DNA of 64,000 nt from Escherichia coli O157:H7 (GCF_013167455.1 NZ_CP038328.1); one strand, 5' to 3'; shown: positions 45,074 to 45,370, counted from the stretch's first letter. Notes: a model not told the origin generated them from the sequence alone. Made by a program: numbers and translations.

Positions 45074-45150
45074 TGGTTGCGGGGGCCGGATTTGAACCGA
45101 CGACCTTCGGGTTATGAGCCCGACGAGCTACCAGGCTGCTCCACCCCGCG
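45074..45150 (-). tRNA. metV: initiator tRNA-fMet (CAU)
   Basis: Plus strand is the exact reverse complement of CGCGGGGTGGAGCAGCCTGGTAGCTCGTCGGGCTCATAACCCGAAGGTCGTCGGTTCAAATCCGGCCCCCGCAACCA; which of metZ/W/V is which is arbitrary. Confidence 0.95.
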
Positions 45151-45183
45151 TCACCGTACTGCTTTTACTTCATCAAATTTGAT

Positions 45184-45260
45184 TGGTTGCGGGGGCCGGA
45201 TTTGAACCGACGACCTTCGGGTTATGAGCCCGACGAGCTACCAGGCTGCTCCACCCCGCG
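45184..45260 (-). tRNA. metW: initiator tRNA-fMet (CAU)
   Basis: Identical 77-nt copy, 33-nt spacer from the previous copy. Confidence 0.95.
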
Positions 45261-45293
45261 TCACCGTACTGCTTTACTTCATCAAATTTTAAT

Positions 45294-45370
45294 TGGTTGC
45301 GGGGGCCGGATTTGAACCGACGACCTTCGGGTTATGAGCCCGACGAGCTACCAGGCTGCTCCACCCCGCG
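45294..45370 (-). tRNA. metZ: initiator tRNA-fMet (CAU)
   Basis: Identical 77-nt copy, 33-nt spacer; first gene of the minus-strand cluster. Confidence 0.95.

Follow-up and report, generated by a model that had tools for sequence, protein, structure and literature searches.

The three tandem genes between positions 45074 and 45370 belong, with a probability that we put at about 97%, to the classical metZWV operon of E. coli, which comprises a sigma-70 promoter, a tricistronic precursor and tandem initiator tRNA-fMet1 genes. They lie on the minus strand of the window, a term used here for the whole 64,000-nt stretch of E. coli O157:H7 DNA that was analyzed. This operon has been characterized since about 1990 and is already known in detail, including its gene structure, promoter, ppGpp control, deletion phenotypes, processing and Hfq binding; its map position is 63.5 min (PMC3017606). 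Comparison with other genomes bears on the evolution of the array: gene conversion does not follow from the three copies being identical, and the number of copies differs among complete E. coli genomes.

ARAGORN called three tRNA-Met(CAT) genes on the minus strand, and these were exactly the tRNA genes of the whole 64-kb window. The promoter-proximal and mltA-proximal gene, metZ (45294-45370), is 77 nt long with an encoded CCA; metW (45184-45260) is the second gene, and metV (45074-45150) is the third and lies closest to amiC. In each of them ARAGORN placed the anticodon cat at position 35. The Rfam tRNA model (RF00005) gave 61.4 bits at each gene, against a gathering score of 29, and Tandem Repeats Finder reported a repeat of period 110 at 45070-45372, with 2.8 copies and 97% matches. 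A search with the exact 77-nt sequence common to all three copies, CGCGGGGTGGAGCAGCCTGGTAGCTCGTCGGGCTCATAACCCGAAGGTCGTCGGTTCAAATCCGGCCCCCGCAACCA, returned three matches with 0 mismatches, where the chance expectation was 0.00. The preliminary description of three identical 77-nt minus-strand genes in a 110-bp unit was thus right to the base.

The label "Met" is given by ARAGORN to any CAT anticodon and leaves initiator, elongator Met and Ile2(CAU) tRNAs undistinguished. A check of initiator features was therefore needed. The minimum-free-energy fold of the tRNA was a cloverleaf in which position 1 is unpaired. Its D stem contains the pair A11-U25 in linear numbering, which corresponds to A11:U24 in canonical numbering and is counted among the identity elements of initiator tRNAs. 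C1 faces an A at linear position 73 (canonical position 72), and a mismatch of this C1xA72 type is found in all iMet tRNAs (PMC8860583). The anticodon stem is closed by three consecutive G-C pairs, G30-C42, G31-C41 and G32-C40 in linear numbering (29:41, 30:40 and 31:39 in canonical numbering), which PMC3017606 describes as a conserved initiator feature. In every copy the variable loop is AGGUC, so that canonical position 46 is a G. This is the fMet1 type, as G46 versus A46 separates fMet1 of metZWV from the metY product (PMC3017606).

An elongator tRNA-Met or a tRNA-Ile2 would also read CAT at the DNA level and receive the same ARAGORN label, but the C1xA72 mismatch, the three G-C pairs by the anticodon loop and the A11:U24 pair all mark these genes as initiators. 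Moreover, published reagents match exactly: the tRNA-fMet northern probe inside each copy, at 45105, 45215 and 45325, and the metZWV knock-out homology arms, tgaaaacgcgagcggagtatagtgcgcatccacgga and cagaaacaaaaaaacacccgttagggtgttcaataat, at 45371 on the minus strand and 45037 on the plus strand (PMC3017606). Together with G46, these features and matches identify the locus as metZWV, and no observation speaks against this. The initiator assignment made earlier therefore stands, and an elongator or Ile2 identity, ruled out by the feature check, retains a negligible probability. As the tRNA sequence is exactly that of the studied E. coli tRNA-fMet1, the metZWV products would be expected to undergo formylation and to be used in the ribosomal P site.

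The operon is placed between amiC and mltA and is oriented opposite to both (NCBIfam and RefSeq annotation). amiC, encoding N-acetylmuramoyl-L-alanine amidase (43747-45000, plus strand; NCBIfam NF038267, 799.9 bits), converges with the tRNA operon, and mltA, encoding murein transglycosylase A (45579-46676, plus strand; NCBIfam NF008366, 682.4 bits), diverges from it. RefSeq annotation agrees for mltA, and the name amiC is also annotated in records that are 100% identical over the query, which takes in the 3' end of amiC from 44600. Both flanking genes had thus been named correctly. The tRNA genes had also been called antisense to their neighbors. Their opposite orientation is correct, but they do not overlap amiC or mltA, so the term is loose.

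Two terminators separate metV from amiC. The Rho-independent terminator of the tRNA operon (45037-45067, minus strand; terminator scan and fold) consists of the hairpin GAACACCC-UAAC-GGGUGUUU at 45067-45048, followed by a U-run (U7), and folds at -11.1 kcal/mol with a z of -3.3. Its motif is kept across Enterobacterales trailers, and a published metZWV knock-out arm matching 45037-45073 takes it in. The A/U-flanked hairpin of amiC (45000-45029, plus strand) folds at -15.3 kcal/mol with a z of -6.0, and at -9.6 kcal/mol with a z of -6.4 when read on the minus strand. Both terminators fold significantly better than shuffled sequence. The amiC hairpin is potentially bidirectional and could serve the tRNA operon as a back-up stop. 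Earlier, the two had been described as back-to-back terminators at 45002-45066; both are real according to the scan and the folds, but their arrangement is convergent, tail-to-tail.

The promoter and short 5' leader of metZWV occupy 45371-45421 on the minus strand, as read from the sequence. An A8 tract (45421-45414) lies upstream of the -35 hexamer TTGCAT (45411-45406), and the -10 hexamer TATAGT (45389-45384) is followed by a GC-rich discriminator, GCGCAT (45383-45378). By our own reading, the spacing between the -35 and -10 elements is 16 nt, and the leader has only a few nucleotides, ending in ...CCACGGA; transcription is predicted to start near 45376-45378. At 45371 there is an exact match to a published knock-out arm and primer that contain TATAGTGCGCATCCACGGA. 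The promoter motif GGTTGCAT-N16-TATAGTGCGC, also written GGTTGCAT-N16-(G)AGTATAGTGCGC, is kept from Escherichia to Dickeya, Serratia and Tatumella. A generic sigma-70 consensus scan of 44700-45800 did not call this promoter, because its weak -35 element matches the consensus at 3 of 6 positions and falls below the threshold. We do not take this miss as evidence against the promoter, which is experimentally supported: the promoter-down mutations D4 and D27 were isolated in and beside the metZWV -10 box (PMC3017606). Repression of the promoter by ppGpp is also on record (Nagase, 1988, as cited in PMC3017606).

In the proposed mechanism, a single minus-strand sigma-70 promoter would drive a tricistronic precursor ending at the hairpin-plus-U7 terminator at 45067-45037. 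The length from promoter to terminator, counted from the sequence, is about 340 nt (45037-45377, minus strand), whereas the full metZWV precursor has been given as "about 500 nt" (PMC10710024). This mismatch could arise if transcription starts further upstream or runs past both hairpins, or if the gel sizing was loose. RNase P, not RNase E, separates the precursor, mainly at the 5' end of each tRNA (PMC2241853, PMC7049720). The 3' ends are probably made without trimming by exonucleases, in a single cut directly behind the encoded CCA, as in other C1 tRNAs (PMC8860583, PMC7049720). The full-length precursor also shows weak Hfq binding through the metW-metV spacer, for which HqbA competes (PMC10710024). 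Given the sequence identity to K-12, expression, formylation and processing are likely to proceed in the same way in the O157:H7 window strain.

metZWV supplies most of the initiator tRNA of the cell. The tRNA level tracks the copy number of the metZWV genes (PMC3017606), and deletion of metZWV results in slow growth and cold sensitivity (PMC3017606; PMC11480407) and in relaxed initiator selection (literature including PMC3017606 and PMC11480407). Growth rate, cold sensitivity and start-codon fidelity all respond to the dosage of initiator tRNA (PMC3017606). For this reason, differences in copy number between strains matter for porting initiation-based synthetic biology tools among E. coli hosts.

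The closest relative of the locus is metZWV of K-12. The gene order argA, amiC, metV-metW-metZ, mltA, tcdA is the same, and there is no difference in the three 77-nt genes, both 33-nt spacers, the terminator or the final 45 nt upstream of metZ, from the -35 element to the leader. The two differ by a few flanking SNPs, with 99.2% identity over 1301 nt; examples are CCAGATCC versus CCAAATCC upstream of the promoter, and CTCCTA versus CTCCCA past the terminator. The same initiator tRNA is encoded by metY (tRNA-fMet2), the first gene of metY-nusA-infB; in E. coli B its sequence is the same, and in K-12 the sole difference is A46 (PMC3017606). In contrast to metZWV, metY occurs once, at a distant site that lies outside the window. 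It makes only a minor contribution to the pool and has another promoter with other regulation, by cAMP-CAP and ArgR (PMC3017606). The arrays valV-valW as well as leuQ-leuP-leuV, also homo-polycistronic operons of E. coli, resemble metZWV: short spacers separate tandem tRNA genes that are identical or nearly so, with a single promoter and a single terminator, and their units are likewise separated by RNase P, not RNase E (PMC2241853, PMC7049720). They differ in encoding elongators with G1-C72 and exonucleolytic 3' trimming, whereas metZWV encodes C1xA72 initiators for which a one-step 3' cleavage after CCA is thought to operate.

Salmonella carries an orthologous array, metZ-metW, whose tRNA and whose promoter and terminator motifs are those of metZWV (L027, L034). 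It differs in having two copies, separated by an unrelated spacer of 28-29 nt (ATTACAATGAGAATGAAAGTTAGACGGA), and S. diarizonae has one initiator copy with C17T. Salmonella metZW has been amplified under selection (Nilsson, 2006, as cited in PMC11721125 and PMC3017606), which shows that such arrays can expand.

The two spacers of the window array had been described as near-identical, and this holds. Spacer 1, between metZ and metW (45261-45293, minus strand), is ATTAAAATTTGATGAAGTAAAGCAGTACGGTGA; spacer 2, between metW and metV (45151-45183, minus strand) and the reported site of weak Hfq binding (PMC10710024), is ATCAAATTTGATGAAGTAAAAGCAGTACGGTGA. Both are 33 nt long, in keeping with a 110-bp unit. 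Their aligned identity is 0.91; a single substitution sets them apart, along with a compensating shift of 1 nt between two A-runs.

From the perfect identity of the tRNA copies, the preliminary description had concluded that gene conversion is ongoing. In almost all of the 31 loci returned by a cross-species scan (one genome per species, tandem junction pattern), the 77-nt gene was the E. coli sequence; this result shows the spread of the identical sequence and not how often the tRNA differs, as the scan pattern fixed 39 of the 77 nt and was conditioned on identical tRNA ends. With the same conditioning (39 of 77 nt fixed), the identical 77 nt were found in loci from Yersinia, Dickeya, Serratia, Edwardsiella, Xenorhabdus and Tatumella, and also in loci labelled Ferrimonas and Marinobacter. 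Since the 77 nt are invariant across orders, identity among paralogues is expected with or without conversion, and the conclusion does not follow. Purifying selection alone would be sufficient for identity within one array, and we infer that very strong purifying selection keeps the three copies identical.

The conclusion also conflicts with copy-specific variants, which do persist across speciation. A compensatory T-stem pair, G53A/C63U in linear numbering, is present in the promoter-proximal copy of two of the four Citrobacter loci and of both Klebsiella loci (Citrobacter sp. Cu233, C. braakii, K. indica and K. spallanzanii; L012, L016, L017, L037), and copies 2 and 3 of these arrays have the E. 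coli sequence. In E. coli Nissle 1917, metW (L040, 311-387) carries the D-loop change C17A, which is also given by a 2026 preprint, and is followed by a spacer with a G-to-A change. The three copies are thus not identical in every E. coli strain. The spacers carry a position-specific signature, T3 in spacer 1 and C3 in spacer 2, that is common to the three genera Escherichia, Citrobacter and Klebsiella. We infer that the array is old and predates the split of these genera.

Ongoing gene conversion or unequal crossing-over could still homogenize the array as a whole, in a process of concerted evolution, and several observations favor this. Gain and loss of units are real in E. coli, as 11 of 118 sampled genomes depart from three copies. 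The four-copy allele carries an exact duplicate of spacer 2, and the spacer of one two-copy allele (L043) looks recombinant. Amplification of the Salmonella array under selection, mentioned above, points the same way. Paralogous spacers are more similar to each other than to their orthologues in C. amalonaticus, Atlantibacter, Edwardsiella and Xenorhabdus: spacer 2 of C. amalonaticus has turned to the spacer-1 type, the Atlantibacter spacers have private motifs in common at 0.94 identity, and the paired spacers of Edwardsiella and Xenorhabdus are 0.78-0.82 identical to each other versus about 0.5 to E. coli. However, the tRNA identity from which the idea arose is uninformative, the same 77 nt being found across genera and orders. 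In addition, the pattern of paralogues exceeding orthologues is absent from the E. coli spacers when compared with Citrobacter and Klebsiella, as spacer 1 of E. coli reaches 0.94-0.97 identity with its counterpart in these genera but only 0.91 with spacer 2 beside it in the array. The position-specific T3/C3 bases, the copy-1 G53A/C63U pair common to two Citrobacter and two Klebsiella species, and C17A in metW of Nissle also speak against it. We therefore regard concerted evolution as a possible but rather unlikely main cause of the similarity within the array. Purifying selection, probably acting also on the leader-like and trailer-like parts of the spacers, would explain most of it. Persistence of copy- and position-specific variants means that homogenization in this clade is slow and incomplete; judging from the C. 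amalonaticus and Atlantibacter spacers, it is real but patchy, and tRNA identity gives no reading of it. It is the spacers, not the tRNA genes, that hold the evolutionary signal, and identity of tRNA paralogues is no evidence of conversion when the sequence is invariant order-wide.

The view of the array as a recombination-prone locus was borne out by its copy number, which the preliminary description had suggested comparing across strains. Two systematic samples of 60 rows each were spread over the ranked list of 5,425 genomes, and 59 of each were informative, 118 in total. Copies were counted in this way as alignment coverage cannot separate copy-number alleles, overlapping matches being joined. 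Three copies were present in 107 of the 118 genomes, two in 6, one in 4, and four in 1, so that about 9% of the sampled complete E. coli genomes (11/118) depart from three copies, with losses (10/118) more frequent than gains (1/118). The eight variant loci that were dissected all differ by clean 110-bp units between identical flanks. In the four-copy allele spacer 2 is repeated exactly, and in three two-copy alleles spacer 1 is kept exactly. The spacer starts with ATT, the spacer-1 signature, in all four two-copy alleles inspected (L003, L041, L042, L043) and with ATC in none of them. The L043 spacer combines ATT with the G-to-A variant otherwise seen in spacer 2 of Nissle, which suggests a crossover inside the spacer and a recombinant of spacers 1 and 2. 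Copy-number variants occur with three downstream flanks (no island, the T6SS island and a short island), and they thus arose more than once. The occasional deletion or addition of a unit would result from slippage or unequal homologous recombination between 110-bp units.

An assembly or sequencing artefact could in principle explain the triplication in the window. Public genomes called complete do contain such errors, as in NZ_CP008697.1 (ST648; L006, position 3000), where a single N at the junction replaces the whole array. We rejected this apparent zero-copy allele as an assembly collapse rather than a deletion and left the record out of the 118 genomes; it calls for some caution about assemblies at this locus. 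On the other hand, three copies with the same spacers are found in about 90% of the sampled complete genomes, K-12 also has three copies, and many O157:H7 assemblies match the window at 100% identity. It is thus extremely improbable that the three copies of the window are an artefact.

The copy number of initiator genes is reported to have medium-dependent fitness effects in E. coli, with copy loss being advantageous in poor media (Samhita, 2014, as cited in bioRxiv 10.1101/2022.06.16.495782). If the copy-number variation in the sampled genomes were a genuine dosage polymorphism under selection, and not neutral noise or the product of assembly errors, which we consider doubtful, the array would be a natural tuning knob for the capacity and fidelity of translation initiation, and the advantage of copy loss in poor media would be a candidate pressure.

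The strain comparison also revealed that the region just 3' of metV is a site of island insertion. Positions 44600-45900 of the window are 100% identical to O157:H7 and O55:H7 chromosomes annotated with amiC, three tRNA-Met genes and mltA, and of 5426 complete E. coli genomes, 5425 have the metZWV locus. In 1964 of these 5425 genomes (about 36%), no single match covered at least 80% of the query. Homology ended at query positions 466-474 in the sampled rows of this group, which corresponds to 45065-45073 of the window, 1-9 nt past the CCA of metV, and the members that were fetched carry an island at the metV flank. Roughly 36% of E. coli genomes would thus carry a T6SS-containing island here, and the O157:H7 window is the empty site, with its insertion point at 45065-45073. 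Such an island "downstream of metV" was already known (PMC3032704). The block found 3' of metV in APEC O2-211 is about 34 kb long and contains a T6SS cluster and a module with PTS, MalY, KpsF and phosphoglycerate dehydrogenase; no integrase was annotated in this copy of the island. Occupied sites are represented by loci L002 (1-20011) and L039 (1-14231). The island brings its own replacement terminator for the tRNA operon, and the trailers diverge after ATT.

All inspected strains with the T6SS island (L002, L005, L007, L040, L041) carry A instead of G at the position corresponding to 45393 of the window, on the minus strand and 4 nt upstream of the -10 element (GCGAGCAGAGTATAGT). The G is kept at the equivalent position in the strain with the short island (L043). 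Among laboratory mutations, D4 is a G-to-A substitution located "just upstream of the Pribnow box" with a strong promoter-down effect (PMC3017606), and it may affect the same position as the natural change at 45393.

Two groups of loci seen alongside deserve mention. In Escherichia sp. MOD1-EC7003 (L024, 2262-5448), the part with mltA and the array matches the window and E. coli at 95.7% identity, and a block in common with Klebsiella spallanzanii (about 89%, BLAST) is found downstream of metV in place of amiC. Its 60-nt trailer equals that of K. spallanzanii, and its spacer 2 has Klebsiella-type bases. This locus could be an Escherichia/Klebsiella chimera, and it was excluded from the evidence. 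In the Ferrimonas balearica and "Marinobacter nauticus" loci (L025, L026, L030), 5-6 initiator genes form longer arrays. The compensatory pair G7A/C67U distinguishes copies, and interspersed among them are tRNA-like remnants, about 81 nt long, with the end ...CCGGC(C/T)CCCGCAACCA. The locus labelled Marinobacter is 89-98% identical to the Ferrimonas loci of the same project, which suggests mislabelling or contamination.

Several small RNA genes were also matched by Rfam, all at gathering level, elsewhere in the window. GcvB is found at 49856-50061 on the minus strand, with a match of 199 bits. Two tandem genes of the OmrA/B family lie on the plus strand at 16443-16524 and 16640-16727 (86.1 and 96.6 bits), and ES036/CssrF lies just downstream of mltA, at 46798-46840 on the plus strand (46.5 bits).
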